64,000 nucleotides of DNA from Candidatus Magasanikbacteria bacterium GW2011_GWA2_37_8 (GCA_000992085.1 LBTN01000005.1:4999-68998), one strand, 5' to 3'; numbered from the stretch's first letter, positions 5,311 to 57,965 are shown. Notes: generated by a model from the letters alone, not told the origin. Numbers and translations: made by a program.

Positions 5311-5324
5311 ACGTAACCCAAACA

Positions 5325-5356: not shown

Positions 5357-5360
5357 ACTT

Positions 5361-6794: not shown

Positions 6795-6812
6795 ATGTGT
6801 GGATAAATATTT

Positions 6813-10765: not shown

Positions 10766-10770
10766 ATCTT

Positions 10771-11745: not shown

Positions 11746-11759
11746 ACTTATAATATTAT

Positions 11760-12563: not shown

Positions 12564-12650
12564 CCAATAGTTCATAGTTACGGGCCTATTGGCTACGAAC
12601 TATCAACAACCTATTGGCTACGAACTATTGGCTATGAACTAATTAAACAT
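12549..12650. repeat. TTGGCTRTGAACTA palindromic repeat cluster (pyrK/pyrE spacer)
   Basis: TAGTTCACAGCCAATAGCCAATAGTTCATAGTTACGGGCCTATTGGCTACGAACTA plus two further direct copies. Confidence 0.8.
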
Positions 12651-16532: not shown

Positions 16533-16613
16533 AATAAGGAGTAAAGAGTAAGGAATAAATAACAGTTAATCGCCCGCATTACTTATTCCTTTTTCCTTAT
16601 TCTTTATTCCTTC
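16533..16613. repeat. Inverted pair of (GGARTAA)n repeats
   Basis: AATAAGGAGTAAAGAGTAAGGAATAA ... TTATTCCTTTTTCCTTATTCTTTATTCCTT in the Nif3/epmB spacer. Confidence 0.75.
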
Positions 16614-16711
16614 ATCTTATTACAAAAAAACCGACCTGTCAAACCCTATACACCACATTTTGTGGGGCTGGGCACGTTACAGGTCGGCGTGACGAAGACA
16701 AGCATTTTTCG

Positions 16712-17646: not shown

Positions 17647-17733
17647 TAAGGAATAATGAAAAAGGATTAAGGAATAAGTAACCTAAACAATCAATCGCTA
17701 TTTACTCTTTATTCCTTACTCCTTGTTCCTTCA
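17647..17733. repeat. Inverted pair of (GGARTAA)n repeats
   Basis: TTAAGGAATAATGAAAAAGGATTAAGGAATAAG ... TTTACTCTTTATTCCTTACTCCTTGTTCCTTC. It supplies the epmB 5' UTR and the last codons and stop of the ATP-grasp gene. Confidence 0.75.
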
Positions 17734-20045: not shown

Positions 20046-20172
20046 AATTTTAGTCAGAGATTAAATTAGGGAAAGGATCCTCCGTAAAGGACACATGATT
20101 CATAATATTTTTTCTGGTGTAATTATATCACCACTCACCCTAGTGTCAAGAGATTTTTGCCATGTGGATAAG

Positions 20173-23118
20173 TTAAACTAAAGCAATCATTACTTTACCC
20201 TCTCCTACTTCTATTTCTACCGCACCGTCCCTAGCTTCCAACACCAAATCTTTGGCTTTAACCGATGCTATTAATTCTGTTTTATATACCTCAAAAACTT
20301 CAACCAATTCTTTGTCTTCAGTATGCCAAAAAATAGTTACCAAATCCGCTGGGGTAAGATTTTTCTCTTTACGCATCTGATTTATCCCACGAACAAGTTC
20401 GCGCAACAAACCTTCACGTTTAAGTTCGGGGGTAATAACCGTATTTAATCTAATCTTAATTTCAGATTCTTCTTTTGTTACACCATCTTCTTGGTCTCGC
20501 ACTACTTCTGTATATTTAACCTCTTTTACATTCAATTCATCAGCTGCCATTTTCTCCAATTGTTCTGAAAGTTGTTTTCCTTGATAACGTACATATTGTA
20601 GTGGTTGTCTTACCTTCACTCCACTTTCTGCCCGAGCTGCCAAACCCATCTCCACAATCTTCCTAGCCAAAATCATTTCTTCCAAAACTTTTTCATTCAC
20701 CAATTTTTTATCCACCTCTGGCCAAGTCTCCAAATGTACTGATTCGATTATTCCTTGTTCCTTGCTCCTTATTCCTTTATATATCTTCTCTGCAATAAAC
20801 GGCGTAAACGGTGCCATTAACTTGGATAAAGTTAAAAGTACATAACCCAAAGTATCCGAAGCAGCCAAAGCATCGTTTTTATCATCTCCTTTAAATCTAT
20901 CACGCGAACGACGCACATACCACTGCGATAATTCGGTAACAAAATCCAAAATTGGTCGAGAAGCATCAGTCAAACGATAACCCTCCATGCCTTTGGTAAC
21001 ATCACCAATCAATACTTGCAATTTTGCCAAAATCCACTTGTCCAATATATTCTCACTTACTCCTTGTTCCTTATTCCTTATTCCTTCACTCGCAAACATT
21101 TCGTAAAATGTAACTACATTCCACAAAGTATTAATTAATTTACTATAAACTTCACGCACCCCAATCTCAGAAAAATTTAACCCTTCGGCTGCCATTACTG
21201 GCGAAGTAACCAAATAGTAGCGCATGGCATCAGCACCATATTTTTCCAAAACAATATCTGGTTCTGGATAGTTCTTTAAACGCTTGCTCATTTTTTTACC
21301 ATCTTCTGCCAAAACAATGCCATTAACAATTACATTACGAAAAGCTGGCACTGAATGTTTGGTCGGGATAATTGGTTTTTTACCACTAGTTAAAGCAGTG
21401 GCTAAAATATGCAAGGTATAAAACCAACCGCGAGTTTGATCTTGGCCTTCCGCGATAAACTCCGCTGGAAAACCAGCCTCAAATTTGGTCTTATTCTCAA
21501 ACGGATAATGCATTTGCCCATATGGCATAGAACCAGATTCAAACCAACAATCCAAAACCTCAGGAATACGTTTATATACCTTACCATCTTTTTTAATCTC
21601 CAAATCATCAATTTTGTGTTTATGAAGATCAGTGATTTTTGCACCAGTTAATTGTTCCAATTCTTCTACATTCCCTATACACAATGCCTCACCATCCTCA
21701 TTTTCCCAAACTGGAAGCGGGGTTCCCCAAAATCGATTACGCGATACCGCCCAATCACGCGCGCCTTCAAGCCACAAACCAAAACGCCCTTCTTTTATAT
21801 GCTCTGGCACCCAATTAATATCTTTATTATTTTTTAATAGTTGTTCTTTTAATTCTGTAACTTTAATAAACCAACTATTGGTAGCATAATTAAGAAGCGG
21901 GGTATCACAACGCCAACAATGTGGATAACTATGTTCAAATTTTTCTTTGCTAAATAATTTTCCATTATGCGCTAACCATTTAATAATTTCTACATCAGTC
22001 GCTGTCGGCTCTTCGCGTGGTTTAACTTCATGGCCAGCAAAATCTTCTACTTCCTCTACAAATCTCCCATCCATTTTTACGTGTTGCACCAGCGGTATCC
22101 CCTCACGTTTGCCCACATTATAATCGTCTTCACCAAAAGCTGGAGCAATATGTACCACACCAGTACCGTCTTCGGTGGTAACAAAATCAGCGCCTACTAC
22201 TCGAAAGGCATTAGAGGTATTAACAAAATATGGAAATAACGGTTCATATTCAAGACCGATTAAATCCGAACCCTTGAATGTTTTATCTAACACATAACTC
22301 GTATCACGTAACACAGTTTCTAATCTATCCTTGGCCAATACCAAATTTTCTTCACCAACTTTTACTAAAACATAATCAATATCACTACCAACTGCCAACA
22401 AAACATTTCCTGGCAAAGTCCAAGGCGTAGTTGTCCAAGCCAAAATATACACCGGCCCGCTCACGTCTCGTAATTTTTCCTTATTACTTACTCCTTGTTC
22501 CTTTATACAAAACTTCATAGTCACTGAAATGTCTTTTACATCTTTATATCCCTGCGTTACTTCAAAATTTGATAACGGCGTTACACAGCGCGGACAAATA
22601 TGCATGGCCTTGTGCCCTTTGTAAATCAAATTCAAATCCCAAAGCTGTTTAAACACCCACCAAACACTTTCCATATATGGCAAATCCATGGTTTTATAAT
22701 CATTTTCCATATCAACCCAGCGCCCCATACGTTTGATAGTCTTTTTCCATTCTTCCGCGTATTTCAAAACCGTTGCCCGACAAGCTTCATTAAATTTGGC
22801 TACACCATATTCTTCAATATCTTTTTTACTATTCAAATTTAATTCTTTCTCAATAATATTCTCCACTGGTAACCCATGGCAATCCCAACCCCACCGGCGT
22901 TCCACGCGTTTTCCTTGCATGGTCCAATAACGTGGTACCACATCTTTCATAAGCGAAGCCACAATATGCCCATAATGAGGAAGTCCGGTAGCAAAAGGCG
23001 GACCATCATAAAAAACATATGGCTTATCCTCTGGACGTTCAGAAACAGATTTTTCAAAAATTTTGTTATCCTCCCAAAATTTTAAGACTTCTTTTTCGTT
23101 GTCGTTAGCGTTATACAT
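20173..23118 (-). CDS. ileS: Isoleucine--tRNA ligase
   Basis: 981 aa. HIGH (PHYGH) and KMSKR (KMSKRLKN) motifs. Carries three in-frame copies of the (GGARTAA)n repeat. Confidence 0.93.
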   Translation of the reverse strand: MYNANDNEKEVLKFWEDNKIFEKSVSERPEDKPYVFYDGPPFATGLPHYGHIVASLMKDVVPRYWTMQGKRVERRWGWDCHGLPVENIIEKELNLNSKKDIEEYGVAKFNEACRATVLKYAEEWKKTIKRMGRWVDMENDYKTMDLPYMESVWWVFKQLWDLNLIYKGHKAMHICPRCVTPLSNFEVTQGYKDVKDISVTMKFCIKEQGVSNKEKLRDVSGPVYILAWTTTPWTLPGNVLLAVGSDIDYVLVKVGEENLVLAKDRLETVLRDTSYVLDKTFKGSDLIGLEYEPLFPYFVNTSNAFRVVGADFVTTEDGTGVVHIAPAFGEDDYNVGKREGIPLVQHVKMDGRFVEEVEDFAGHEVKPREEPTATDVEIIKWLAHNGKLFSKEKFEHSYPHCWRCDTPLLNYATNSWFIKVTELKEQLLKNNKDINWVPEHIKEGRFGLWLEGARDWAVSRNRFWGTPLPVWENEDGEALCIGNVEELEQLTGAKITDLHKHKIDDLEIKKDGKVYKRIPEVLDCWFESGSMPYGQMHYPFENKTKFEAGFPAEFIAEGQDQTRGWFYTLHILATALTSGKKPIIPTKHSVPAFRNVIVNGIVLAEDGKKMSKRLKNYPEPDIVLEKYGADAMRYYLVTSPVMAAEGLNFSEIGVREVYSKLINTLWNVVTFYEMFASEGIRNKEQGVSENILDKWILAKLQVLIGDVTKGMEGYRLTDASRPILDFVTELSQWYVRRSRDRFKGDDKNDALAASDTLGYVLLTLSKLMAPFTPFIAEKIYKGIRSKEQGIIESVHLETWPEVDKKLVNEKVLEEMILARKIVEMGLAARAESGVKVRQPLQYVRYQGKQLSEQLEKMAADELNVKEVKYTEVVRDQEDGVTKEESEIKIRLNTVITPELKREGLLRELVRGINQMRKEKNLTPADLVTIFWHTEDKELVEVFEVYKTELIASVKAKDLVLEARDGAVEIEVGEGKVMIALV
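20748..20780. repeat. (GGARTAA)n repeat in-frame inside ileS
   Basis: Encodes ..IKEQGVSNKEK.. on the minus strand. Confidence 0.7.
21055..21089. repeat. (GGARTAA)n repeat in-frame inside ileS
   Basis: Encodes ..SEGIRNKEQGVS.. on the minus strand. Confidence 0.7.
22477..22507. repeat. (GGARTAA)n repeat in-frame inside ileS
   Basis: Encodes ..GIRSKEQGII.. on the minus strand. Confidence 0.7.
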
Positions 23119-23606: not shown

Positions 23607-23859
23607 AGTCCGCGACTTTGTCGGGACGGTACCATCTTGTGCTTTAGCTTAATTACGGCTATAACGGGCCAACCCGCAGGGTTCTACTTACCACTTCTGG
23701 CTTTCTTCCCCAAGCTCCTCGCTGATAACGAGTTTTAATGCTTTTCTTATGTGTTTATCTTACTCAAAAAAACATTAACTGTCAACTGTTGCGTGTCAAC
23801 TGTTGCGAATTCTTATTAAAAACTATATAATACATTTACCAAATCAAAATTCGATCAAT

Positions 23860-23890
23860 TTATTCCTTACTCCTTATTCTTTATTCTTTT
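23860..23890. repeat. (GGARTAA)n repeat, 5' UTR of the rpiB-like gene
   Basis: TTTATTCCTTACTCCTTATTCTTTATTCTTTT. Confidence 0.7.
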
Positions 23891-29249: not shown

Positions 29250-29600
29250 CTATTTTTTGTTGACTATAGACCAAATAATTTTGGCTAATTCATTAATCAA
29301 CAAAACCGTTTCTTTAAATTTTAATTCATTTAAATAATTTTGTTTTTTAGAAAAATTTATCAGATACCTGGTTTCTTCTAATGAACCAAAAGCAATAATT
29401 AAAAAACGTCTAAATTCATTTTTACTCTGCCTAGCAAACCCTTCAACAATATTTAATACCACCGACAAAGCAGATCTCCTCAGTTGTGACGTTAAACCAT
29501 ACAATTCATATTTTGGAAAACACTGTATAATTTCATAAATACTATTTGCCAACTTATCAGCCTTAACATACAATGGATTATTTTCACTTATCATAATCAC
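29250..29600 (-). CDS. Four-helix-bundle protein (23S rRNA intervening-sequence protein family)
   Basis: LTSQLRRSALSVVLNIVEG...FRRFLIIAFGSLEETRYL is a strong match to the TIGR02436/PF05635 signature. Confidence 0.7.
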   Translation of the reverse strand: MIMISENNPLYVKADKLANSIYEIIQCFPKYELYGLTSQLRRSALSVVLNIVEGFARQSKNEFRRFLIIAFGSLEETRYLINFSKKQNYLNELKFKETVLLINELAKIIWSIVNKK

Positions 29601-29632
29601 TTACTCCTTATTCTTTATTCCTTACTCCTTAT
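29597..29632. repeat. (GGARTAA)n repeat
   Basis: CACTTACTCCTTATTCTTTATTCCTTACTCCTTATA between the trmH-like gene and the four-helix-bundle gene. Confidence 0.7.
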
Positions 29633-30073
29633 ATCATACATAGCAATTCCAGTGGCAACACTTACATTTAAACTATTTTTTTTACCCTTCATTGGAATTT
29701 CGATTGACTCATCACAATATTTTAACAGCCCTTTGGTAACGCCGGTCTTTTCATTTCCTACTACCAAAACTATTGGGAGCTTTGGTTTCCACTTATATAT
29801 ATTAACACTATTTTTGGTTTGTTCCAAGGCAACAATATTATAGCCTTCGCTTTTTAACTGTTTCAAAACTCGCCAAGCCTGTTTTTCGTATTGCCAACTT
29901 ACCCATTTTTCTGCTCCAAGCGAAACTTTGGTAACTTTAATATCTTCGGGTTTGGGCGTATAGCCAGTTAAATAAATTTTATTTACCCCAGCACCATCAG
30001 CTGTTCGAAACATCGCCCCCACATTGTGGCAACTACGAATATTGGGTAATACCAAGATAAAATTGTCTTTCAT
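29615..30073 (-). CDS. SpoU/TrmH-family RNA 2'-O-methyltransferase
   Basis: SPOUT motifs (NVGAMFRTADGAGV, VVGNEKTGV, NVSVATGIAMY). Confidence 0.75.
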   Translation of the reverse strand: MKDNFILVLPNIRSCHNVGAMFRTADGAGVNKIYLTGYTPKPEDIKVTKVSLGAEKWVSWQYEKQAWRVLKQLKSEGYNIVALEQTKNSVNIYKWKPKLPIVLVVGNEKTGVTKGLLKYCDESIEIPMKGKKNSLNVSVATGIAMYDIRSKE

Positions 30074-40558: not shown

Positions 40559-40892
40559 AGATATTGATTAATTTTCCCCACACAAGGTGGGATCCGTCCT
40601 TCGGCGGAAATTTTTAATTTTTAATTTTTAAATAATTATTGAAATATTAATGTAAATATTGCCAATCTTTCTTTCAAAAACTACCTGTCCAACCTATAAA
40701 CAACAAAAAAAGGGCCAACAAAATAGGGCTTTTCTTTATTTTTTCTTATATTTTAGCCAAAAACAGCAAGGGTAACATGAGAATATTTTAAAAATTACCT
40801 TGCGAGCAGTTTATAACCAACTGTTACAAACCACTTTTTCGCTTAACTAAGCGAAAAAACGAATGTTCAAAATGAACGAGATTTGAAGTAGC

Positions 40893-40926
40893 TTGATTTT
40901 ACCCCAAAATCAAGCTTTTGTCAAAT
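40893..40926 (-). promoter_or_regulatory. Candidate rpoB promoter with adjacent DnaA-like boxes
   Basis: On the minus strand TTGACA, a 17-bp spacer, then TAAAAT. A TTTATCCACC box (8/9 match to the DnaA consensus) lies beside a second TTGACA. Confidence 0.35.
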
Positions 40927-41023
40927 GGAACAGGTGGATAAATATTTGTCAAGAACTATTTCTTTTTTGGCTAATATAAGAGCAAAACTGCCACCAACCA
41001 TCAAAAGACCAAAAAGTTATCCA

Positions 41024-41062
41024 CAGTGCACCACGTGGGGTACACTGTTACACAGTGACATA
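41024..41062. repeat. 40-bp DnaA-box-containing repeat, copy 1
   Basis: AGTTATCCACAGTGCACCACGTGGGGTACACTGTTACACA contains a perfect TTATCCACA. About 35/40 identical to copy 2 at 49519-49558. Confidence 0.7.
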
Positions 41063-41111
41063 CGATTAAAAATAAAAAATACTCTGCTATAAAACAGGGT
41101 ATTTATCGTTG

Positions 41112-41192
41112 TGGTCCGAGTGGGAATCGAACCCACATGCCTTGCGGCACAGCATTTTAAGTGCTGCGTGTATACCAGTTCCACCATCGGAC
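41112..41192 (-). tRNA. tRNA-Leu (anticodon UAA), type II with a long variable arm
   Basis: Minus-strand cloverleaf: acceptor GGUCCGA/UCGGACC, anticodon stem CAGCA, loop CUUAAAA, variable arm UGCCGCAAGGCAUG, T-loop GGUUCGAUUCC. CCA is not encoded. Confidence 0.8.
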
Positions 41193-41194
41193 CA

Positions 41195-41668
41195 TTAACC
41201 TCTTTTTTTATTTTTACCTCTATGCGTTGGTTGCAAACTATGACAATTTGGGCATAGAATCTGTAAATTTTCTATTCTATTATCATGTCTATCGCCATTA
41301 ATATGATCAAGTTCGAGCGGAATTCTACCATCTAGTGCTTTCTTAGCCCAACCACATTTTTCACATTCTGGTTTTTTTAAACCAACCATGAACAATCTTT
41401 TCTTTAATTTAAAACTCTGAAAATCATTATTTTTAACCAAAATATCTTTTAACGATAACCTCGGTTTGCCAATTCCTTTCATTCCTTTGTTCCAAGCCAT
41501 TCCTGTAAAATGATCACTGCTAATTTTATTTTCAAGAATTGTTTTCTTTACCTGTGCATAATTACCGCCTGCCTCAACCAAACCAAGCTTTCCGATAACT
41601 TGACGAATACTGGTAGAATTTTTAACCGCGACCCGTAATTGCTCAATTGTCCATTTTTTCTTTTTCAT
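41195..41668 (-). CDS. HNH endonuclease
   Basis: C-terminal ...CEKCGW...LELDHINGDRHDNRIENLQILCPNCH is a canonical HNH motif with zinc-binding Cys pairs. Abuts the tRNA-Leu 5' end. Confidence 0.8.
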   Translation of the reverse strand: MKKKKWTIEQLRVAVKNSTSIRQVIGKLGLVEAGGNYAQVKKTILENKISSDHFTGMAWNKGMKGIGKPRLSLKDILVKNNDFQSFKLKKRLFMVGLKKPECEKCGWAKKALDGRIPLELDHINGDRHDNRIENLQILCPNCHSLQPTHRGKNKKRG

Positions 41669-42127
41669 ATGTTACTTACTATAACATATGGCAGACAAAT
41701 AAGCAATGGTTTTACTGTACGTATACCAATATATTTTTTCCTCGGCAAAAAGCTGCGAGAAGAGTTGCATGTTTTAGCTAACGGGCCAAATTCATAAAAC
41801 GCCGTTCCTGGTCAAAAAAATGAAAAGGAAAGGAGAGAGAATGCTTTAGAAATTCGATCCGGTTGAGACATCAACTCTATCGCAGCTTACTACCGAGAAA
41901 CTGTTCAGAATTGTAATAAGAAAACAGAGTTATGTCAAGCTGTGGATAAGATTTGTAAAAAATATTTTTCTAAAACACTAATTTTTTTTAACTTCTTCTA
42001 CAAATTATCAAATAATTTACAAAAGAAGTTACGGAGACACGTGAGTCGCCGCGTCCTTCTAGTCGTTTGATTCAATTCCGCCACTAGCAGAAATGAACAC
42101 TGGGACGACTAGCCCTCCTTGTTCTCG

Positions 42128-42637
42128 CTACTTCGCCGGAACGCCGGCAACAACCATTTGCTGGAGGAGACAGAGACCATCGTTGGGCGATATAATTTCA
42201 TCGTACGTGTCGACCAACCACACCAGCCTACCCAAGGCGTTCGTCACGCTGGCGAAGTGACATCCGTGATTATGCATGTTGTTGTGATACCACATGTGTT
42301 TGCGATAAAAGATATCACCATGTTGCTTACCTTCTCCGCAGTTGCAAACACGGAACTCCCACGTAGTTGTGAAACCGTCTGGCAACGGCGCCGACCAGAT
42401 CTGCTCTACCAGTTGGGAATGCAAGATCGCTAGACCACCATTCGACGCAACCTGCGTGAAATCATCACGCCTTTTCTGGTCAGACGGCTCGCTTCCAATC
42501 ACGCGCAGAAGATCGTCGATCGTGAAAATCAGGTGGCTCGGCGCAGACATGTGGTCGTACAGATATACGGCCTTGATCTGACAGGCCAGCAGCAGCGCAT
42601 GAGTTGCCCAGAAAAGTTCCATTGCAAATTCCTCCAT
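42128..42637 (-). CDS. GC-rich His-rich hypothetical protein (possible metal-binding fold, foreign cassette)
   Basis: About 55% GC. GAGGGGG ribosome-binding site 11 nt before the ATG. Motifs YLYDHMSAPSH and HMWYHNNMHNHGCH. Confidence 0.45.
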   Translation of the reverse strand: MEEFAMELFWATHALLLACQIKAVYLYDHMSAPSHLIFTIDDLLRVIGSEPSDQKRRDDFTQVASNGGLAILHSQLVEQIWSAPLPDGFTTTWEFRVCNCGEGKQHGDIFYRKHMWYHNNMHNHGCHFASVTNALGRLVWLVDTYDEIISPNDGLCLLQQMVVAGVPAK

Positions 42638-42771
42638 CACAGTTTTCGCCCCCTCAAAACAAATGAGGGAAAGAAAAAGAAAAAATTTTCCCTTTCTTCC
42701 CCTCATTTAATCAATAACTACTTAAATAAACATAGAACAAATTTCACAATCTGTCAATCATCCCTTAACAA

Positions 42772-43199
42772 TTATTTTGTCCACTTTATTTCTTCAATCC
42801 CACTATTCATATTCAACCACCTTCCCAACACAAACAAACAATCGCTTAAACGATTCAAATATTTTTTAATATTATTATCAATTTTATATTTCTCGGACAA
42901 ACAATCCATTTTTCTAATTTTGTAATTTCGCTACTTTTTAATTTTGGTATATTTTTTAATTCTGTTTGCACCGCTGCTAAATTGGCACCAACCACAAACA
43001 AACACCGCTGAATATTTATTAGTTTATTTTTTTCCTGTTTAAAATCTTCCTCCACTTCTTCAATCACCACTCCCAAAAAAGCATTAAGCTCATCCACCTC
43101 CCCAATCGCATCCATTTCAATACAAGATTTACAAACCCGCTTTCCACCAAGCAAAGAAGTTTTTCCACTATCCCCAGTTTTAGTATAAATTTTTGGCAT
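42772..43199 (-). pseudogene. PduO-type ATP:cob(I)alamin adenosyltransferase, frameshifted and internally deleted
   Basis: N-terminal IYTKTGDSGKTSL...VDELNAFLG in one frame. The conserved C-terminal YLNRLSDCLFVLGR is in another frame, with the central segment missing. Confidence 0.6.
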
Positions 43200-43252
43200 A
43201 TACTTTAATATATAATTTTAAACTTTGTATATTAAATTAAATCATAAAATTT

Positions 43253-43996
43253 CTACTCTGGCAAAGAATTCCACAACATCTCAAAAATTTCTTTATGCAT
43301 TTGTATAATACTTTTATTTTCAATCACCAACGCAATAGCTGGATCTGCAAGTTGATGTATCAAAACTTTTGACGGTATTAGATTTAAATTAGTAGTCAAT
43401 TTTGTTTTATCAGGCAAAATTTTTACTTTAAAATTAAAATTTTTCTCGTACTTTTTATAATATCTGGCTTTTTCTGAATTTTGTAAAAGTAAACGTACTT
43501 TTATATTCAGTTTACTTCTTCTCTCCACAAATTTAGAAAAATATTTTTCATCGGCCTTACTCCATGTTTCTGTATCAGACAAAACTAAATATTCCTCATG
43601 TGGCTTTACAGAATTAAGCAAATTTTCGTAGGCAGATTTAATCGATTCCAGCCCTTCATAATATTTAATAAAAGCCCCACTTGGTTTTGTCTCGTACAAT
43701 GCTGAAATCTCTGGAAAAACTTTTTTAAAATTATTCTTTTTTAATTCAAGCATGGCTTCTAATTTATCCGGACTGGCAGCCACAAAAAATTCTTTCCAAC
43801 CATGCATTTCTACACTGATTAAACCTTTTCTTTTTAACAATTCTATCACCGAATATACTGTTGTTCTCTTAACATCTGCAGATTGAGCAATTCTAGCAAC
43901 CGAAGCCAAACCTAAAGCCAGAATTGCCAAATAAACCCGAGCTTCATGTTCGTTTAACCCCAAATCAATTAATGCGTTGATATGCTTTTTTTCCAT
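43253..43996 (-). CDS. TrmB-family transcriptional regulator
   Basis: N-terminal winged HTH (LGLNEHEARVYLAILALGLASVARIAQSADVKRTTVYSVIELLKRKGLI), typical of TrmB. Confidence 0.7.
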   Translation of the reverse strand: MEKKHINALIDLGLNEHEARVYLAILALGLASVARIAQSADVKRTTVYSVIELLKRKGLISVEMHGWKEFFVAASPDKLEAMLELKKNNFKKVFPEISALYETKPSGAFIKYYEGLESIKSAYENLLNSVKPHEEYLVLSDTETWSKADEKYFSKFVERRSKLNIKVRLLLQNSEKARYYKKYEKNFNFKVKILPDKTKLTTNLNLIPSKVLIHQLADPAIALVIENKSIIQMHKEIFEMLWNSLPE

Positions 43997-43998
43997 AT

Positions 43999-44084
43999 TT
44001 TGTCATTTTAGTCGTCAACAATAAATATTGTAACATAAGCCAAAATATAAGTCAATATTTATATATTGTTGACAAAAATGACAA
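43999..44084. promoter_or_regulatory. 86-bp imperfect palindrome in the divergent promoter region (candidate TrmB operator)
   Basis: TTGTCATTTTAGTCGTCAACAATAAATATTG ... CAATATTTATATATTGTTGACAAAAATGACAA. Contains TTGACA boxes. Confidence 0.45.
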
Positions 44085-44157
44085 TCATTTAACTTTCTAC
44101 TATAATTATTTGTCAAGCTAAGTGGTGGCTTGATAGCAACAAACGGAGGAGACATAA

Positions 44158-44685
44158 ATGTCCAAGCGAAAATGGAAAGCTATTGCCCGACTCTCGGACA
44201 ATCGTACGAGAATCGCAGTGTCACTCGCCACGGATCCAAAAATTTTAGCCTGTTACGAGCGCGGTTTCCCACATCTGTTCACCGAAGGTGACGACGAAGG
44301 ATCGCTCCATGTTCCACTCTCGGCGCTGATGGAAGCAGCGGAAGAGTTCTCCCGGGATCAATATCCTGACGAGCCCCAGTTCTGGACCATCGATAGACAC
44401 TTTACTCTTGACTTCGCAGGAGAATACTACTCACACCTCCGTATTCCCAATACCTACATGTGGGAATGGGAAGAAGACGAAATCCCCGACTACGTAATCA
44501 ACCAACTTGCTGGCCAGAAGGCCCAAGCCGGATTGGTTGTAGAAATCAACAGGGAGAAATACGTGGTCACAAGCATTACTTTCGACGGCGATTGTCCGGT
44601 TGAAATCGGCGAGATCTTTCAGACACCACCTCCGGTCGTCGCCATACACCTTTGTCTGGTCGACTTCATCGCCCTGGACAAGTAA
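44158..44685 (+). CDS. GC-rich acidic hypothetical protein (foreign cassette)
   Basis: About 55% GC. GGAGGAG ribosome-binding site 8 nt before the ATG. 175 aa with an acidic patch EWEEDEIPDY. No recognisable domain. Confidence 0.45.
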   Translation: MSKRKWKAIARLSDNRTRIAVSLATDPKILACYERGFPHLFTEGDDEGSLHVPLSALMEAAEEFSRDQYPDEPQFWTIDRHFTLDFAGEYYSHLRIPNTYMWEWEEDEIPDYVINQLAGQKAQAGLVVEINREKYVVTSITFDGDCPVEIGEIFQTPPPVVAIHLCLVDFIALDK

Positions 44686-44782
44686 AGCAAACAGCGGTTC
44701 TCATCCACTCGTGTGCGCCCGACACGTTCAAAACGGGCACTCACTCAAAGTATTTAATTTTTTTAAATATTTTGAGAGCAAC

Positions 44783-44812
44783 AAAAATCCGCGGAGTGCG
44801 GATTTTTGTTTT
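44783..44812. terminator. Bidirectional intrinsic terminator
   Basis: AAAAATCCGCggagtGCGGATTTTTGTTTT. It serves the GC-rich ORF (+) and nrdJ (-). Confidence 0.7.
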
Positions 44813-44850
44813 ACTTTATAAACTTTATAACTTTCAACTTTACTAACTTC

Positions 44851-47800
44851 CTAACTACACCCCGTCGTACTTCCACAATTCAAACACTTATAACAACTTC
44901 CATTCCTAATCGTAATATGCCCACAAGTTGGACAGGGTGGCGCGTCACCCATCATTCCCGACAACTGTTGATCGGCGGCACTGCCAACCACGGCGGTGGT
45001 AGTTTTGGTTGCAATTGTATCATTGGTCTTTGGCAAATTCGGCAAACTCATTTGGTCTTTATCAACTGTTTCTTTTAAAATCAACTTTTCTTTTTCAATT
45101 TCATCATCATCTTTTTCTTTTAAATCCAAGGTTGTTTGCCCTTGCATTTCGGCAGCCATTTTTGCCATTTGTTCGGCACGATTTTTTTGAATGCCATTTG
45201 GTTTTACTTGTACAAAATCGGTGCGCCCCAAATATTCCATTCCCAAAATTCTAAACACCAAATCTATCACTGAAGTACAACTACGAATATTAGGATGATC
45301 GGTCATGCCGCTTGGCTCAAACCGAGTAAAAGTAAATTTATCAACATATTCTTCTAGTGGAATACCATATTGCAAACCAGTGGAAATGGAAATGGCAAAC
45401 AAATTTAACACCGATCGAAACGCGGCCCCTTCTTTGTACATATCGATAAACACCTCACCCAACTTTCCATCTGGATATTCGCCAGTGCGTAAAAATACTT
45501 TTTGCCCGCCCACTTTGGCTTTGATAGTTAAGCCACTGCGTTTATATGGCATGCGACGTTGTTCGCCATGAATATAAATCTGAGTACCTTGCACAGTGCC
45601 ATCATGCGCATATTTTGTTTGTGCGTGTTCTTGTGGCACATTTTGCTCCACCCCCGCATTTACCAGCTTCACACTTACCTCACCTTTCGCACCACTCATT
45701 TCTTCTTGATTCTTAATTCCAGATTCTTGATTCTTCTCAACTTTGTCCTCCGCTTTTTTACTTTTACTCGACAACGGTTGCGATAATTTACAACCATCGC
45801 GATAAAGCGCATTGGATTTTAAACCTAATTTCCAAGAAGCCATGTAAGCAATTTTTACATCTTCTACAGTTGCCGAATTAGGCATATTGATAGTTTTGGA
45901 AATGGCACCAGACAAAAATGGTTGCACCGCTGCCATCATACGAATATGACCCAAATAATGAATATAGCGTTGACCCTTTCGGCCATTTTTATTAGCTGTA
46001 TCAAACACGGCATAATGCTCTTTCTTCAAATGTGGTGCACCTTCAATAGTCATTGCCCCACAAACATATTCGTTGGCAGCATTAATAGCATCGGCGTTGT
46101 AACCCAAAGCAGTAAGCAAATTAAAATTGGAATCATTGTACTGTTCGCTAGAAAATCCCAAACGTTCTAAACATTCTTCACCCATTGTCCAAACATTAAA
46201 CGCAAATGGCAGTTCGAATACAGTTGGTAAATTCTTTTCTAACTTGGCCAAATCTTCATCAGTTAATCCTTTTTCTTTTAAAGACTCATGGGTAATGGCT
46301 GGCGCGCCTTTTAAACTGCCGTGGCCTTTTAAATAATCAATCATGTCTGTTATTTGTGTTTCGGTATAACCCAAAGTTTTAAGTGCCACTGGTACAGCTT
46401 CGTTAACAATTTTGAAGTATCCGCCACCAGCTAATTTTTTAAATTTCACTAAAGCAAAATCTGGTTCTACACCAGTGGTAGAACAATCCATTAAAAGTCC
46501 AATTGTTCCGGTTGGCGCTAAACAAGTATTTTGCGCATTTCTAAAGCCATACTTTTCTCCCAGTTCTAACGCTTGATTCCAACTTTCACGAGCAGCCGCC
46601 AGCAAGTAGGCTGGAGCGTATTGTGGATCGATTCCTAAGGGTGGAATAGCCAAACCTTCATATTCATCCGGCTTAGCATTAAACGCTGCCCGACGATGAT
46701 TGCGAATAACGCGCAACATATCGGCCCGATTCATGGCGAATTTATTAAACGGTCCAAGTGCTCGTGCCATTTCGGCCGAGGTAACATATGATTCGGCGTT
46801 TAACAGGGCAGTAATAGAACCAGCAAAAGCCAAGGCTTCGGGAGAATCGTATGGGATACCAGCAGTCATAAGCACACTACCAATATTGGCATAGCCCAAA
46901 CCCAAAGATCTAAAATCATAACTACCCTGGGCAATGGCAGCGCTAGGAAATTGCGCCATTAAAATACTAATTTCCAAAACTGTGGTCCAAGTGCGAGTGG
47001 CATGTTTAAAACCAGCCACATCAAAAGTCATGGTTTCGGAATCGTAAAAATGGGCCAAGTTAATTGAAGCTAAATTGCAGGCAGTGTCATCCAAAAACAT
47101 ATATTCACTGCACGGGTTTGAGGCATTAATACGACCGGATTGCGGACAAGTATGCCAGTCGTTAATGGTGGTATCAAATTGAAGCCCTGGGTCGGCACAA
47201 CTCCAAGCAGCCTGGGCCACTTTGTCCCACAATTCTCTGGCCTTTAAAGTTTTACAAGATCGGCCATCGGTGCGCCATTTTAAATTCCATTCGCCATCAT
47301 TTTCTACTGCTTCCAAAAATTCTTGCATTACACGCACGCTGTTGTTAGAATTTTGGCCAGACACAGTTTGATAGGCTTCACTTTCGTAGGCGCTATCATA
47401 ACCAGCAGCTACCAAAGCAGCTACCTTTTTTTCTTCTTTAACTTTCCATTCAATAAATTCTTCAATATCAGGATGATCAACATTTAAAATTACCATTTTA
47501 GCAGCGCGACGAGTAGTACCACCAGATTTGATTGCGCCAGCAGCACGATCACCAATACGCAACCAACTCATAAGGCCAGACGAAGATCCACCACCAGATA
47601 ATTTTTCTCCTGATCCGCGTAAGTTAGAAAAATTTGTTCCAGTACCAGAACCATATTTAAATAGTCGTGCTTCACGCACCCACAAATCCATAATACCACC
47701 TTCATTTACCAAATCATCTTTTACCGATTGGATAAAACAATTATGAACTACCACACCGTTAGCACAAAATAATTTATTTTTCTTTTCTTCGGAAACAAAA

Positions 47801-49317
47801 CCAATTAATTCGGCAAATTTTTTCCGTTCAGAAAAATAAGAAACGCTTAATTGATAACTTTGATGACGATCTACTCGTTTTTCACTATTAGGGGTTAGAT
47901 TAGAATAAACACCAAGTTCAAGTAAAAGTATTTGCACCTCATGCAATAATTTTTCAGAAATTGAAGTAAGCACAACATCACCACAATTATGGCTTTCATC
48001 GTTACGTTGACGTACACAACCATCAGCTTGAAATAAACCGTGCAAAAATGCTGCCTTCTCTGCCACTGTACCAGACATAATGATTGTTGGTACTTGAGCT
48101 AAAGACGAATTATAATTTACTTGATATTCATTTACAAAAGTATCGGCCTCTTTAGAATTAAAATGCACCACCCGATACAAATCACTTACTTCTTTACGTA
48201 TAGTAACAGTATGATGACCAAAAATATTGTCCATCAAACGTACTGCTTCAACAAATTCGTCGTCATTAATAGTAATTATACCAAACATCGTAGTTTTTTG
48301 ATTACGACCATATTTACCATAAAAACCGTCACCTAATACCCAACCTGCCAATTCAGCCTTATCTATTTTTATTTGCTCAACTTGGTTTTTTTCTGCTTGT
48401 GGCAAAGAATACTGCTGTACTCTATTACCTAACAAATCTTTAAACTCACACCAATCATACTTCCCGCCGTCCTTAGCTCGCATATCTGCCGACCAAACCA
48501 AATGATCATCAGTAAAATCTAAATAATTACCATTTTTTAAAGTGGCACGATACAATTTTTTAATTCCATTATTTTTTACTGCCAAAACTTTAACAAATTT
48601 TTCACCATCAAAAATTTTAATGTCGGTTAAATTTTCTTCAACTACATCGCCTAAATTCAAAATTCCTTTTTCAGTAAATAATTTTGTATCATACCGGCCA
48701 CAAGCATGTGGTTGGGGGTGAGTATATGCATCAGTTGATTGGGTTAATACACCGGTGTTAGGATCAACATAATAGTGACCTTGAGCCGGGCCGTTAATTC
48801 CGTATGCCCATTGCAAACCAGTGTTAAACCATTGTGGTGAATTGGGCGCAGCCAATTGGCCAATAATCATATACACCAATTCGTCATAAAAAATTTCGGC
48901 GTCTTCGGCTGAAGCAAAATAACTATATTTTTCTCCCCAATAGCGCCAAGTGCCAGCCATACGATGAGCCACTTGTTTAATACTGTGTTCAGAACCCAAA
49001 ATTGGAGTACCGTCTTCTTTTAATTGTGGTGTACCATCGGCGTTGTATTGGGGCACACCCGCTTTACGAAAATATTTTTGCGCCAAAATATCAGTAGCCA
49101 CTTGCGACCAAGTTTTTGGCACTTCTACATCAAGCATTTCAAAAATTAATTTACCACTTGGTTCACGAATAACCGACGAACGCAATTCGTATTCAAACAA
49201 ATCATACGGACTTACACCACTTTTGGTAAAATATCTTTCAAAGTGTAGACCATTTTCTATATCGTATTTAAAATCATTATCTTTTACAAAAACTTTAGTG
49301 GCGGCAGCAGTATTCAT
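44851..49317 (-). CDS. nrdJ: Ribonucleoside-triphosphate/diphosphate reductase, adenosylcobalamin-dependent (class II), intein-containing
   Basis: Class II RNR extein motifs (..THPQPHA|C...|CFIQSVKDD.., C-terminal CPTCGH...CYKCLNCG zinc ribbon). 1488 aa including a 321-aa intein. Confidence 0.88.
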   Translation of the reverse strand: MNTAAATKVFVKDNDFKYDIENGLHFERYFTKSGVSPYDLFEYELRSSVIREPSGKLIFEMLDVEVPKTWSQVATDILAQKYFRKAGVPQYNADGTPQLKEDGTPILGSEHSIKQVAHRMAGTWRYWGEKYSYFASAEDAEIFYDELVYMIIGQLAAPNSPQWFNTGLQWAYGINGPAQGHYYVDPNTGVLTQSTDAYTHPQPHACGRYDTKLFTEKGILNLGDVVEENLTDIKIFDGEKFVKVLAVKNNGIKKLYRATLKNGNYLDFTDDHLVWSADMRAKDGGKYDWCEFKDLLGNRVQQYSLPQAEKNQVEQIKIDKAELAGWVLGDGFYGKYGRNQKTTMFGIITINDDEFVEAVRLMDNIFGHHTVTIRKEVSDLYRVVHFNSKEADTFVNEYQVNYNSSLAQVPTIIMSGTVAEKAAFLHGLFQADGCVRQRNDESHNCGDVVLTSISEKLLHEVQILLLELGVYSNLTPNSEKRVDRHQSYQLSVSYFSERKKFAELIGFVSEEKKNKLFCANGVVVHNCFIQSVKDDLVNEGGIMDLWVREARLFKYGSGTGTNFSNLRGSGEKLSGGGSSSGLMSWLRIGDRAAGAIKSGGTTRRAAKMVILNVDHPDIEEFIEWKVKEEKKVAALVAAGYDSAYESEAYQTVSGQNSNNSVRVMQEFLEAVENDGEWNLKWRTDGRSCKTLKARELWDKVAQAAWSCADPGLQFDTTINDWHTCPQSGRINASNPCSEYMFLDDTACNLASINLAHFYDSETMTFDVAGFKHATRTWTTVLEISILMAQFPSAAIAQGSYDFRSLGLGYANIGSVLMTAGIPYDSPEALAFAGSITALLNAESYVTSAEMARALGPFNKFAMNRADMLRVIRNHRRAAFNAKPDEYEGLAIPPLGIDPQYAPAYLLAAARESWNQALELGEKYGFRNAQNTCLAPTGTIGLLMDCSTTGVEPDFALVKFKKLAGGGYFKIVNEAVPVALKTLGYTETQITDMIDYLKGHGSLKGAPAITHESLKEKGLTDEDLAKLEKNLPTVFELPFAFNVWTMGEECLERLGFSSEQYNDSNFNLLTALGYNADAINAANEYVCGAMTIEGAPHLKKEHYAVFDTANKNGRKGQRYIHYLGHIRMMAAVQPFLSGAISKTINMPNSATVEDVKIAYMASWKLGLKSNALYRDGCKLSQPLSSKSKKAEDKVEKNQESGIKNQEEMSGAKGEVSVKLVNAGVEQNVPQEHAQTKYAHDGTVQGTQIYIHGEQRRMPYKRSGLTIKAKVGGQKVFLRTGEYPDGKLGEVFIDMYKEGAAFRSVLNLFAISISTGLQYGIPLEEYVDKFTFTRFEPSGMTDHPNIRSCTSVIDLVFRILGMEYLGRTDFVQVKPNGIQKNRAEQMAKMAAEMQGQTTLDLKEKDDDEIEKEKLILKETVDKDQMSLPNLPKTNDTIATKTTTAVVGSAADQQLSGMMGDAPPCPTCGHITIRNGSCYKCLNCGSTTGCS
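47740..48702 (-). mobile_element. Intein with a LAGLIDADG homing-endonuclease domain, inserted in nrdJ
   Basis: Begins with Cys immediately after QPHA and ends ..VVHN followed by extein Cys. Internal LAGWVLGDGFY and LHGLFQADGCV LAGLIDADG blocks. Confidence 0.8.
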
Positions 49318-49518
49318 AATATTAAAATTAGAAGTTTGAAAAAATTATCTTTTTAAGTATTAATACTATATGTTGTGTTGGAAAATATATTTAAGCACTA
49401 CATACAGTATTTATTTTAGTGCCTTAACATTATATCATACTTGGCAGTGCCCCACCAAATGGCTAGCTTTTTTGCCTAACTTAAGGGAAAAACCCATAAA
49501 AAAATAACTCATACTAAA

Positions 49519-49558
49519 TGAGTTATCCACAGCGCACCACAGGGGGTACACTGTTGGC
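49519..49558. repeat. 40-bp DnaA-box-containing repeat, copy 2
   Basis: AGTTATCCACAGCGCACCACAGGGGGTACACTGTTGGCAC. Same orientation as copy 1. Confidence 0.7.
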
Positions 49559-49591: not shown

Positions 49592-50056
49592 TTATTCTAG
49601 GCCTAATTTCTGTAATAATGCTTGGGCTTGGGTTTTGGCGGCTGCTTCTAGTTCTATTTCACTGCCTTCAAAACCTTGTTCACGTAACTCTCGTGCTTCT
49701 TCCTGCTCTAAGGCAGACCGCAGATCAGTTAATTCCGACCGTAAACCAGCCAACTTTTTTTGAAGAGATTCTACTGTCTTTTTGTCCTGCTCTACTGCTG
49801 GAATACCATCATCAGATAATTGCAGTTGGGCACGAATTGCCTGCACAGCCTTAACCACCTGTTGCATATTGGCCAAAATATTTTGAATTTGCTGTTTAGT
49901 AGATTTGATTTCACGCGAAACCAACTCCACCCGCTCGCGAGCCGCTGCTTTTTTGTCTTCCACCGATTCTTTCTTTTCTCTAGCTTCAGCAGCCGCTTCA
50001 ACATTTTCTGCGCTTCGCCGTCTTAAATTTTCACTTTCATTTTCAAATAAATTCAT
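49592..50056 (-). CDS. Coiled-coil hypothetical protein
   Basis: 154 aa, E/K/A/Q-rich heptad pattern, no catalytic motif. Confidence 0.4.
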   Translation of the reverse strand: MNLFENESENLRRRSAENVEAAAEAREKKESVEDKKAAARERVELVSREIKSTKQQIQNILANMQQVVKAVQAIRAQLQLSDDGIPAVEQDKKTVESLQKKLAGLRSELTDLRSALEQEEARELREQGFEGSEIELEAAAKTQAQALLQKLGLE

Positions 50057-50136: not shown

Positions 50137-51234
50137 ATGGAAGAAGAATTAATTGAAATTGAAGAACGGATTATTACCCCTCAAGCCGGAAACGAAGAGG
50201 CGGTTTTTGAAATTACTTTGCGCCCACAGCAGTTGGTAGATTTTGTTGGCCACGAAGAGGCGGTTTTTGAAATTACTTTGCGCCCACAGCAGTTGGTAGA
50301 TTTTGTTGGCCAAGAACAATTAAAACAAAATCTTAATATTGCTATCCAAGCAGCTACAAAACGCGGAGAATCTTTGGAGCATATTATGCTTTATGGTAAT
50401 CCAGGTTTGGGTAAAACTACATTGGCACATATTATCGCCCATGAAATGAATGCCAATATCAAAGTAACTTCTGGCCCAACTTTAGAAAAAGTTGGTGATC
50501 TGGCGGCAATATTATCTAACCTGCAAGAAGGCGACGTTTTGTTTATTGACGAAATTCATCGTTTAAATAAAACCATTGCCGAAGTTTTGTACCCTGCCCT
50601 CGAAGATTATGCACTAGATATTATTATTGGACAAGGCCCAGCCGCTCGTTCGATTCGCGTGCCGCTAGCCCATTTTACTTTAATTGGCGCTACCACCAAA
50701 TTAAGTTCGTTGCCAGGGCCACTACGTGATCGGTTTGGCCATGTATATCATTTAAATTTTTACGAACCAGAAGATATTGAAAAAATTATCAAACGTAATT
50801 CCAATATTTTAAAAGTAAATATCGAACCAGAAGCGCTAGCTTTAATTGCTTCGCGCGCCCGTCGCACCCCGCGCATTGCCAACCGACTTTTAAAACGTGT
50901 GCGCGATTATTCTGAAGTACATGGCAATGGTGGTATGGTTAATAAAAAAATTGCTGGCGAAGCCATGGCGCTACTGGCAATAGATGAATTTGGATTAGAC
51001 GAAATTGATCGACGATTATTAACAATTTTAATTGAAAAATTTGATGGCGGTCCAGCTGGTTTAAACACATTGGCTGCCGCTATTGCCGAAGAAATGGATA
51101 CTATCGAAACAATCTACGAACCGTTTTTGTTACAGATGGGATTTTTGGAACGCACCCCACGCGGTCGCAAAGCCACCAACGCTGCTTATAAACATCTGGG
51201 TTTTGATACCCCAAAAATTGCAACCCTTTTGTAA
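50137..51234 (+). CDS. ruvB: Holliday junction ATP-dependent DNA helicase RuvB
   Basis: Walker [15 protein letters not shown]+ sensor motifs and a winged-helix C-terminus. Carries an in-frame 60-bp tandem duplication at 50194-50313. Confidence 0.9.
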
Positions 51235-57251: not shown

Positions 57252-57965
57252 GTTTGAGTGGGGGATGCGATGAAGATCCATTCGCACACCACATTTTTTT
57301 CTGAATTATTTTGGAAAAAAATGTGGAGGATATTGCGAATGGATTTTTGTTTTGTAATTTAAGTTAGTCAACCCAATCTGTAATATAATTATAATTGTGT
57401 TACTATAAATTTAGTGAATTAACTGTTCAGAGATTGGGGAGGTTTTCATGGGGAAGCGTTCACACAAGAAGCGAGATTGGGAGGCTGACTACAACGACCT
57501 CCCGAGCTTCCGTCGTGCGTGACAGTTCGTGAACATGAACATGAAGGATTTCAAAGTTGCTGTTATGAAGATTGAACGTCGTGGTCGTCGTGCGGAAGCT
57601 GGATTAGGCTTTTCCAGGCGCGAGGAGCATGAGTGCTTGGGTACCTTCTACCCCAAGTAACACATGCGGAAGTCCTGAAACAGCGCTTCTCAGACACCAC
57701 CCCCCCTTCGGCGCGAAGGGGGCGAGGCTATGCGGTACCACATCTACCGTCGACATTCACTCAGATTATTTAATCACCTTGAATAATTTGAAAGGAGTTC
57801 TGTCGACGGTTTTTGTTTTATATTCATCAAAATAGTTCTAACATCCTCTACTAAGGAGCCCATCGTAAAACTTCGCTTAAATAGCGGGGTTTTTGTTTTA
57901 TAAGTTATCCACACTTGACGAGTTTAATTAGGTGGTGTATCATTCAAACATACATTTGAACGTAT

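Follow-up and report, generated by a model that had tools for sequence, protein, structure and literature searches.

The question raised by this locus concerns two short direct repeats, each containing a DnaA box, which lie 8.5 kb apart in a 64-kb stretch of DNA from Candidatus Magasanikbacteria bacterium GW2011_GWA2_37_8 (LBTN01000005.1:4999-68998; 37.5% GC, approximately 15% non-coding; the whole stretch is referred to below as the window). Are they the ends of a degraded genomic island, as was considered when the DNA was interpreted from its sequence alone (hereafter the sequence-only reading), or do they belong to the regulatory regions of the genes that they precede? The analysis favours the second answer. 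The repeats are probably two copies of one upstream cis-regulatory module, with a predicted high-affinity DnaA box as its core, situated at the promoters of rpoBC and of nrdJ, the gene of a class II (B12-dependent) ribonucleotide reductase (RNR).

The sequence-only reading had noted two same-orientation copies of AGTTATCCACAG(Y)GCACCAC..GGGGTACACTGTT, each with a perfect DnaA box, TTATCCACA. Both the copies and their boxes were found, although the first coordinate had been placed at 41024, approximately 9 nt away from the start of the copy at 41015. The repeats are 35 nt long, lie on the same strand, and are identical at 32 of 35 positions in register (32/40 over 40 nt, instead of the 35/40 given earlier). 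The 40 bp of homology first recorded were also too short: gapped local alignment extended it to approximately 90 nt (40961-41049 versus 49466-49555), with a score of 63, compared with 26 for the highest of 300 shuffles. Identity reaches 91% over the hairpin and the box, and approximately 55-60% over the remainder of this homology. The 20-nt core of the repeat, with up to 3 mismatches allowed, is expected 0.01 times by chance (shuffled sequence) and was found twice in the window; no third copy was found within these 64 kb. The component parts are the following:

41015-41049, minus strand: repeat copy 1, read on the minus strand as AACAGTGTACCCCACGTGGTGCACTGTGGATAACT and listed as AGTTATCCACAGTGCACCACGTGGGGTACACTGTT
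49521-49555, minus strand: repeat copy 2, read on the minus strand as AACAGTGTACCCCCTGTGGTGCGCTGTGGATAACT and listed as AGTTATCCACAGCGCACCACAGGGGGTACACTGTT
40961-41049, minus strand: extended module of copy 1 (hairpin, DnaA box, 43-nt spacer, TTAGCCAAAAAAG)
49466-49555, minus strand: extended module of copy 2 (hairpin, DnaA box, terminator-bearing spacer, TTAGGCAAAAAAG)
41017-41025, plus strand: DnaA box of copy 1, TTATCCACA, read on the rpoB strand as TGTGGATAA; the 11-mer TGTGGATAACT spans 41015-41025
49523-49531, plus strand: DnaA box of copy 2, TTATCCACA, read on the nrdJ strand as TGTGGATAA; the 11-mer TGTGGATAACT spans 49521-49531
41023-41048, minus strand: palindrome/hairpin of copy 1, ACAGTGTACC (41048-41039), 6-nt spacer, GGTGCACTGT (41032-41023)
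49529-49554, minus strand: palindrome/hairpin of copy 2, ACAGTGTACC, 6-nt spacer, GGTGCGCTGT

Read along the gene strand, each copy consists of ACAGTGTACC, six bases, GGTGC(A/G)CTGT and GGATAACT, the last arm merging into TGTGGATAACT. The layout of the whole module on the minus strand is a hairpin, the box, a spacer of approximately 43 nt and finally TTAG(C/G)CAAAAAAG.

Both copies are intergenic, and all the genes flanking them are encoded on the minus strand. Copy 1 is located between tRNA-Leu(UAA) and rpoB, 43 nt downstream of the T-run in the terminator of the tRNA gene and approximately 90 nt upstream of the rpoB -35 hexamer. Copy 2 is located between the stop codon (49592) of a gene encoding a coiled-coil protein and the terminator of that gene, 86 nt upstream of the nrdJ -10 element. 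The tRNA-Leu gene had been noticed in the sequence-only reading and is present, with the anticodon UAA. The features around the two copies are listed below; related loci are cited by number (L093, etc.) from the 124 that were fetched.

41111-41193, minus strand: tRNA-Leu(UAA), with its own terminator at 41104-41068
40896-40924, minus strand: rpoB promoter, TTGACA-17-TAAAAT, conserved in relatives
40941-40933, minus strand: near-box TTATCCACC, 8 nt upstream of the rpoB -35 hexamer
49592-50056, minus strand: gene of a coiled-coil protein (154 aa), directly upstream of nrdJ in L093, L094, L121 and L122
49498-49526, minus strand: terminator-like hairpin of the coiled-coil gene, ATAACTCAT-TTAGT-ATGAGTTAT followed by T7, its 5' arm overlapping the DnaA box
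49429-49439, minus strand: nrdJ promoter with an extended -10 element, TATGATATAAT, also given as TGATATAAT; TGnTATAAT is invariant in nine genomes
49363-49410, minus strand: paired NrdR boxes, ATACTGTATGTAGTGC (49410-49395) and ACACAACATATAGTAT (49378-49363), with a 16-bp linker
44851-49317, minus strand: NrdJ, class II (B12-dependent) RNR, with a LAGLIDADG intein at approximately 47740-48702 (...QPHA/C...HN/CFIQ)

The evidence that carries this conclusion is the conservation of the box at both genes. Upstream of nrdJ, the 11-mer TGTGGATAACT occurs in one orientation and in identical form in eight of nine genomes (the window, L087, L088, L089, L093, L102, L121 and L122), and the ninth, L094, has TGTGGACAACT, with one mismatch. 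Around this box the only other conserved blocks are the T-run, the extended -10 element and the NrdR boxes, the rest of the sequence being unalignable. The rpoB upstream regions of L007, L009 and L039 contain this 11-mer as well, without a change of orientation, and L008 carries TGTGCATAACT, again with 1 mismatch. All four of these loci contain a second motif, TAAGCCAAA, 43-44 nt past the rpoB box, separated from it by sequence that is not conserved. A wider survey covered the 800 nt upstream of rpoB in 69 loci of Patescibacteria (the named records being Magasanik-, Falkow-, Uhr- and Buchananbacteria and one metagenome-assembled genome (MAG) of Parcubacteria). A perfect TGTGGATAA on the rpoB strand was present in 21 of the 69 loci, and in the reverse orientation in 3. 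The remaining 1.21 Mb of the same loci, which served as background, contained 4 forward and 3 reverse perfect boxes, which corresponds to an approximately 100-fold enrichment upstream of rpoB. Conservation of the position and orientation of the box at both genes lends support to the idea, already put forward in the sequence-only reading, that nrdJ and rpoB are controlled through DnaA boxes.

The spacing between box and promoter points in the same direction. The distances from the nrdJ box to the -10 element are 86, 83, 83, 82, 72, 71, 71, 60 and 60 nt, and those from the rpoB box to the -35 hexamer are 90, 91, 91, 80 and 102 nt; they shift in steps of approximately 11 bp, i.e. one helical turn. 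We also aligned the 21 rpoB sites on the box. This revealed a second box-like 9-mer beginning 2 bp after the first (offset +11), with a mean match of 4.33/9 versus approximately 2.5 elsewhere; the match is at least 6/9 in 7 of the 21 loci, and there is a third peak at +31. In Escherichia coli, DnaA binds 13 of 32 perfect boxes and prefers double boxes with a gap of 2-3 bp (PMC11317965).

Perfect DnaA boxes are generally frequent in the window (7 versus 0.77 expected), and 6 of the 7 are intergenic, compared with the non-coding share of approximately 15%. The same tendency was observed in the related loci, where 15 of 20 perfect boxes lie outside open reading frames (ORFs), which leave approximately 10% of that DNA uncovered. 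The boxes of the window precede pyrBI, an ArsR-glutaredoxin operon, nrdJ, rpoB, a candidate non-coding RNA (ncRNA; see below) and a Ddl-like (D-Ala-D-Ala-ligase-like) gene, and four perfect boxes are placed 2-14 nt from a -35-like hexamer. The DnaA boxes near -35-like hexamers include those at 6798-6806, 20163-20171 and 57905-57913, together with the rpoB-proximal near-box at 40933-40941; the genes that they precede are pyrBI, a Ddl-like ATP-grasp gene, the ArsR-glutaredoxin operon and rpoB, which suggests a DnaA regulon weighted to nucleotide metabolism.

A replication origin (oriC) was also considered. It was rejected because nowhere in the window do boxes cluster, and because small GC-rich ORFs, and not an AT-rich array of boxes, occupy the non-coding gap where the GC skew reaches its minimum (56.7-58.0 kb). 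Two further motifs were set aside, since TTAGCCAAA is not an intergenic-specific motif in general, and GGCAnTGCC, the most enriched 9-mer in the window, is found mostly inside genes.

We propose that DnaA would occupy the box upstream of each promoter, always on the same face of the helix, and that this binding would tune the expression of the core genes of RNA polymerase and of the only enzyme producing deoxynucleoside triphosphates (dNTPs) to the state of replication, as it does at nrdAB of E. coli. DnaA as the protein that binds the box is our inference, and its effect may be activation or repression. At nrdJ, the DnaA input would be layered on repression by NrdR, exerted through the two NrdR boxes downstream of the -10 element, which are conserved in the nine genomes. 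An NrdR operator is defined as two 16-bp partially palindromic boxes with a linker of 15-16 bp (PMC13584703, PMC12051234). The nrdJ promoter conforms to this definition, which applies to the promoter and not to the repeat; a motif search of the window found no NrdR gene.

Several observations weigh against this interpretation. With 86 nt, the nrdJ spacing in the window departs from the phase of the relatives by 3-4 bp. In the host genome the sites are single boxes, the 9-mers at +11 matching at 4/9 and 3/9 positions only. The box lies approximately 60-100 nt upstream of the -35 hexamer, i.e. farther than the sites of classical activators. The nrdJ box also overlaps the upstream gene's terminator, and could act on read-through and not on initiation. 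Finally, the hairpin half of the repeat, 21/24 identical between the copies and absent from all relatives, is not accounted for by DnaA.

The overlap with the terminator also speaks for a different view of the boxes, in which DnaA bound to them would form titration sinks, or orientation-dependent roadblocks that act with the terminators against read-through into rpoB and nrdJ. The nrdJ box is placed between the upstream stop codon and the terminator, whose stem it overlaps in the window, L094, L102, L121 and L122 (relatives keep equivalent terminator hairpins beside the nrdJ box, with stems that differ in sequence), while the rpoB box follows the upstream terminator by 30-45 nt. The orientation of the boxes is strictly conserved, and complexes of DnaA with its box are able to block transcribing RNA polymerase, as at asnC and mioC of E. 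coli. Boxes on the chromosome are known to titrate DnaA in E. coli (PMC12371093), whose 4.6 Mb contain 32 perfect boxes (PMC11317965), a far lower density than the 7 in the 64 kb analysed here. Pure titration, however, requires neither a fixed orientation nor a position at particular genes. The distances to the -10 and -35 elements, which change in 11-bp steps, argue for contact with the promoter complex, and the constant 43-nt spacing to the second motif, AGCCAAA, suggests a defined nucleoprotein architecture. Because of this helical phasing and fixed spacing we favour contact with the promoter complex, and regard titration or a roadblock as unlikely to be the main role of the boxes.

The unit under selection might instead be the hairpin. 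It could be (i) a stabiliser or processing site acting at the RNA level in the 3' untranslated region (UTR), or (ii) a selfish repeat, similar to repetitive extragenic palindromes (REPs) or miniature inverted-repeat transposable elements (MITEs), that settled beside pre-existing boxes. In a variant of this view, the identity over 35 nt would have arisen neutrally, by short-patch gene conversion between similar modules 8.5 kb apart. In the minus-strand RNA of both copies the arms form a 10-bp stem, with one G-U pair in copy 1 and two in copy 2. Of the three differences between the copies, two fall in the 6-nt loop (CCACGT versus CCCTGT), and the only one in the arms is compatible with G-U pairing on the minus strand but gives an A.C mismatch on the plus strand. 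This pattern, drawn from two copies only, is a hint at a strand-specific structure. Moreover, the 3' UTR of the coiled-coil gene encompasses copy 2, and no relative has the hairpin, which is therefore recent.

On the other hand, an approximate search (up to 9 mismatches) of all 124 fetched loci matched only the two copies of the host genome itself. These remain the only two in the 74 kb of that genome which were searched (the window and L124, the 10 kb past its high end), and none was found in 1.9 Mb of related loci. An exact scan of genome and metagenome contig collections for the 24-nt core of the repeat, and a scan of a viral contig collection for the two exact hairpin patterns, gave no match; a search for close strains with the coiled-coil protein yielded nothing above 59% identity. 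Copy 1 lies past the tRNA gene's own terminator and may not be transcribed. As regards gene conversion, the restriction of high identity to the hairpin and box fits selection better than a recent tract. The contrast between 91% and approximately 55-60% identity weakly suggests constraint and not a fresh conversion tract, given that there are two copies only. On balance, we consider it improbable that the hairpin by itself explains the repeats.

Several identities were considered for the palindrome and rejected. It does not serve as an intrinsic terminator: the hairpin of copy 1 is 7 nt from the next T-run, and copy 2 has a separate terminator hairpin. It is not an NrdR box, since ACAGTGTACC-N6-GGTGCRCTGT mismatches the consensus by inspection and is also present at rpoB, which is not an NrdR target. 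A double DnaA box, likewise judged by inspection, did not fit. Nor does it match what we take to be the consensus sequences of LexA and dif. Our best guess is that the 24-nt palindrome is a second, lineage-specific site of the module at both promoters, either the operator of a dimeric protein or a minus-strand RNA hairpin. The tentative ranking of these options would place a second operator first, an RNA hairpin next and a neutral copy last.

The possibility that the 8.5 kb were inserted as a unit, i.e. that they form a degraded genomic island or integrative element whose attL/attR sites or target duplication are the repeats, is very improbable. It is true that the direct repeats enclose a tRNA gene, an HNH gene, two GC-rich ORFs and an intein-bearing nrdJ, and that nrdJ is found within 10 kb upstream of rpoB in none of the 80 loci of species-representative genomes that made up the rpoB comparison set (no synteny upstream of rpoB is shared between these loci and the window). 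The test of synteny rests on metagenome loci retrieved via NrdJ (L087, L093, L094, L121 and L122). The order in L093 is RuvB (on the opposite strand), the coiled-coil gene, NrdJ with its intein, two unrelated genes, PduO, an RNA of approximately 165 nt, tRNA-Leu(UAA), one small gene and rpoB; identity with the window is approximately 81% over the first 213 aa of RpoB and approximately 70-79% for NrdJ. This locus has the same gene order as the window without a direct repeat between its two upstream regions (best local alignment score 31, shuffle maximum 28), the very outcome that the sequence-only reading had named as refuting an island. In L087, RuvB is followed by an inserted stretch of approximately 4.6 kb, NrdJ without the intein, a TrmB-like gene, PduO, the RNA, the HNH gene and tRNA-Leu. 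RuvB, the coiled-coil gene and NrdJ are kept together in L094, L121 and L122, and the junction between the coiled-coil gene and nrdJ is also present in L093. At the boundaries, L093 shares the gene order in full, and L087, L094, L121 and L122 share part of it. Because relatives share the gene order across them, both junctions marked by the repeats are ancestral; the segment is not bracketed in the sense of the sequence-only reading, as both repeats lie in promoter-upstream regions with ancestral flanking gene order.

Other properties expected of an island are also missing. The box half of the repeat is present at orthologous sites in relatives where rpoB and nrdJ are unlinked, and therefore predates any insertion. 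In agreement with the sequence-only reading, the segment encodes no integrase: when all ORFs of 100 aa or more between 41195 and 50056 were compared with Pfam, they gave HNH, PduO, TrmB and RNR with LAGLIDADG, but no recombinase, and the neighbouring genes include none either. The repeat starts 62 nt past the 3' end of the tRNA gene, without overlapping it. Base composition does not deviate across the whole segment, high GC being restricted to orf192 and orf175. An empty site, i.e. the coiled-coil gene joined to rpoB, was not found in any of the loci compared.

The same arms could in principle be the core sites of a tyrosine recombinase encoded elsewhere that excises the 8.5 kb in a programmed manner, since inverted arms around a short spacer resemble such sites and here 10-bp arms with a 6-bp spacer stand in direct orientation at both ends, yet this can hardly be credited: no recombinase is present in or near the segment, the spacers differ at two positions (CCACGT versus CCCTGT) although recombination usually requires crossover regions that are identical, the arrangement recurs in six independent assemblies with no excised junction, excision would remove the only RNR gene seen here as well as a tRNA gene, and the repeat does not resemble the consensus of dif.

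The 8.5 kb between the repeats are a block of ancestral gene order, made up of nrdJ, PduO, a small structured RNA, tRNA-Leu and rpoB. Independent small inserts have been added to it: the LAGLIDADG intein, the HNH gene, TrmB with orf175, and orf192. The remaining features of the segment are as follows:

41195-41668, minus strand: free-standing HNH endonuclease gene (PF13392/PF01844), a variable insert present in L087 and absent from L093
42128-42706, minus strand: orf192, 51% GC, a near-orphan and variable insert
42772-43199, minus strand: PduO-type cobalamin adenosyltransferase gene, broken by a 113-bp deletion at approximately 42902-42910
43253-43996, minus strand: TrmB-family regulator (PF01978)
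44000-44084: inverted repeat of 85 bp in the divergent TrmB/orf175 promoter region, composite, TTGTCATTTTAGTCGTCAACAATAAATA ... TATATATTGTTGACAAAAATGACAA
44158-44685, plus strand: orf175, 51% GC, with 13 homologues of 42-61% identity

The Pfam analysis verified the HNH gene, the TrmB regulator and the class II RNR with a LAGLIDADG insert named in the sequence-only reading. The variable genes differ singly between relatives. The window, L093 and L094 have the intein, which L087, L121 and L122 lack, and the space between nrdJ and PduO is filled by TrmB and orf175 in the window and by a HATPase/DUF4325 gene in L093. As judged from this distribution, the HNH gene, TrmB, orf175, orf192 and the intein are small, variable, independent inserts. 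Two GC-rich ORFs had been predicted as well, and both orf192 and orf175 have 51% GC, compared with 37.5% for the window; elsewhere in the segment the values are 39% (nrdJ) and 31-33% (HNH, TrmB and PduO). Among the homologues of orf175, the two that have a source name both come from Magasanikbacteria MAGs. For orf192 there is one homologue, 83% identical and starting at residue 29, and residues 127-165 match a unit that is repeated 21 times in a protein of 7917 aa. The palindrome reported beside TrmB is present between TrmB and orf175; it is unrelated to the 35-nt repeat and is probably the regulator's own operator.

The state of PduO calls for a separate explanation. The gene had been described as decayed and frameshifted, and its decay next to a B12-dependent enzyme as odd. 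What interrupts the gene is the loss of 113 bp, with microhomology on either side. This loss is confined to the present assembly: in three others from the population (L001-L003) PduO is intact, with 182 aa (TIGR00636, 167.6 bits, cut-off 108), and the oddity is a difference between assemblies. In relatives, nrdJ followed by PduO forms a conserved pair (PduO comes directly after nrdJ in L094 and L121, and L122 has a restriction-modification system at this place). This pairing makes sense because the product of the PduO-type adenosyltransferase, adenosylcobalamin, is the cofactor of class II RNRs. Apart from a few places, the window is otherwise identical to L001-L003. It lacks 120 bp in the C-terminal part of the intein (47770) and approximately 141 bp near 52340, and has an extra copy of a 60-bp tandem unit in ruvB (50192-50311); positions 57822-57888 were also listed among the differences. 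The deletions in PduO and the intein, the two that were checked, are flanked by a few bases of microhomology. Together these differences break PduO, shorten the intein in its C-terminal region and make RuvB 20 aa longer, and they are probably artefacts of assembly or gap closing.

The block also contains a conserved candidate for a structured RNA, and the leader of rpoB has a conserved hairpin of its own:

41739-41899, minus strand: candidate structured ncRNA of approximately 161 nt, a rod-like hairpin, between PduO/orf192 and tRNA-Leu
TTGACA (41938)-17-TACAAT (41910), minus strand: ncRNA promoter, with a perfect DnaA box at 41941-41949
40559-40889, minus strand: 5' leader of rpoB, approximately 330 nt, with a conserved terminator-like hairpin and T-run at 40729-40702

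Relatives of the ncRNA (approximately 161-170 nt) were identified at L093:13138-13309, L087:13395-13562, L121:14892-15060, L007:6511-6681 (minus strand) and L008:8816-8986 (minus strand). The fold comprises 57 pairs, 20 of which show compensatory changes, and the covariance model scores 157-166 bits on the gene strand versus 33-47 bits on the other. No Rfam family matched this RNA even at E<=10. Rfam searches of the window at the gathering threshold, of the segment at E<=5 and of the ncRNA region at E<=10 returned tRNAs only, and no riboswitch, cobalamin riboswitches included. The DnaA box of the ncRNA promoter is TTATCCACA in the window and TTATCAACA in L093 and L087. The RNA gene abuts tRNA-Leu in L093, and the HNH gene separates the two in the window and L087. 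In the rpoB leader, the hairpin is followed by TTTTTTTGTT, a run in which 9 of 11 columns are identical across seven aligned Magasanikbacteria-like genomes; this segment of the leader is nearly identical in L093, i.e. it is conserved beyond the protein. The leader may be an attenuator or a leader RNA.

Some repetitive sequences and genes elsewhere deserve mention. Tandem heptamers TTACTCC/TTATTCC (AAGGAGT/AAGGAAT on the other strand) were noted in at least 8 places in the window (5306-5371, 16563-16628, 17675-17747, 20728-20793, 21037-21102, 22471-22519, 23833-23883 and 29581-29653), and look like stacked Shine-Dalgarno-like units. The gaps between five consecutive plus-strand genes (8887-12650) are filled by a repeated motif, CTATTGGCTGTGAAC / TAGTTCACAGCCAATAG, which may represent a shared operator or an iteron-like array; AGCCAATAG has 21 occurrences in the window. 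Genes of a diversity-generating retroelement (bAvd and a reverse transcriptase) lie just past the high end of the window (L124:6917-8469), and bAvd/reverse-transcriptase genes are also present in a related genome (L121:1169-2581).

The significance of these findings is twofold. A false island is removed from the record, and the decayed PduO and the truncated intein turn out to be defects of one assembly and not biology. In addition, the module would offer a concrete piece of regulatory wiring for an uncultivated lineage of the candidate phyla radiation (CPR), where the control of transcription is barely known. DnaA at an RNR gene is of a known kind; the less expected part is the oriented box upstream of rpoBC in many Patescibacteria. 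To our knowledge, no counterpart of rpoBC as a target of DnaA has been described in E. coli. If the proposed control is real, the status of replication initiation would be coupled to transcription capacity in organisms with very few regulators, and control of rpoBC would tie global transcription to replication in a new and simple way in bacteria whose genomes are minimal. A more far-reaching version is that direct regulation by DnaA, of rpoBC as well as of RNR, would be conserved throughout a large branch of Patescibacteria (Magasanik-, Falkow-, Uhr- and Buchananbacteria) and act through an oriented, often double, box approximately 100 nt upstream, and that the palindrome gained at both promoters in the host genome would recruit a second, lineage-specific co-regulator. 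We put this forward as a speculative and rather doubtful extension of the patterns seen in the compared loci.

Comparison with known systems places the module as follows. Islands linked to tRNA genes and bounded by att repeats are similar in that direct repeats flank a tRNA gene and genes of mobile type (HNH, intein), but differ in that here there is no integrase, the repeat lies outside the tRNA gene, the synteny is ancestral and the small inserts are independent. With REPs and other small palindromic repeats, the hairpin shares the character of a short imperfect intergenic palindrome downstream of genes, in more than one copy; unlike them, it has two copies only in 74 kb, both fused to a DnaA box and both upstream of promoters, and no RAYT/TnpA gene was seen. 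The ncRNA candidate is similar to 6S RNA in its shape. In the case of NrdR, nrdJ has the exact two-box arrangement of the operator, as an element separate from the repeat. The closest parallel is the control of nrdAB by DnaA in E. coli, which is well documented (PMC8203912). The differences are that the enzyme here is the class II NrdJ and not class Ia, that the box is single in the host genome and lies approximately 60-100 nt upstream of the -35 hexamer and not adjacent to it, and that the host is an uncultivated CPR bacterium. The resemblance to nrdAB and the E. coli DnaA regulon (nrdA, nrdD, guaB, purH, rpoH, dnaA and polA) consists in the consensus box TTATCCACA upstream of an RNR promoter and in the presence of boxes at genes of nucleotide metabolism, here pyrBI, the glutaredoxin operon and nrdJ. 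At the level of the wider family, but not in the host genome, it may extend to the pair of boxes 2 bp apart that characterizes the E. coli targets detected by chromatin immunoprecipitation sequencing (PMC11317965).

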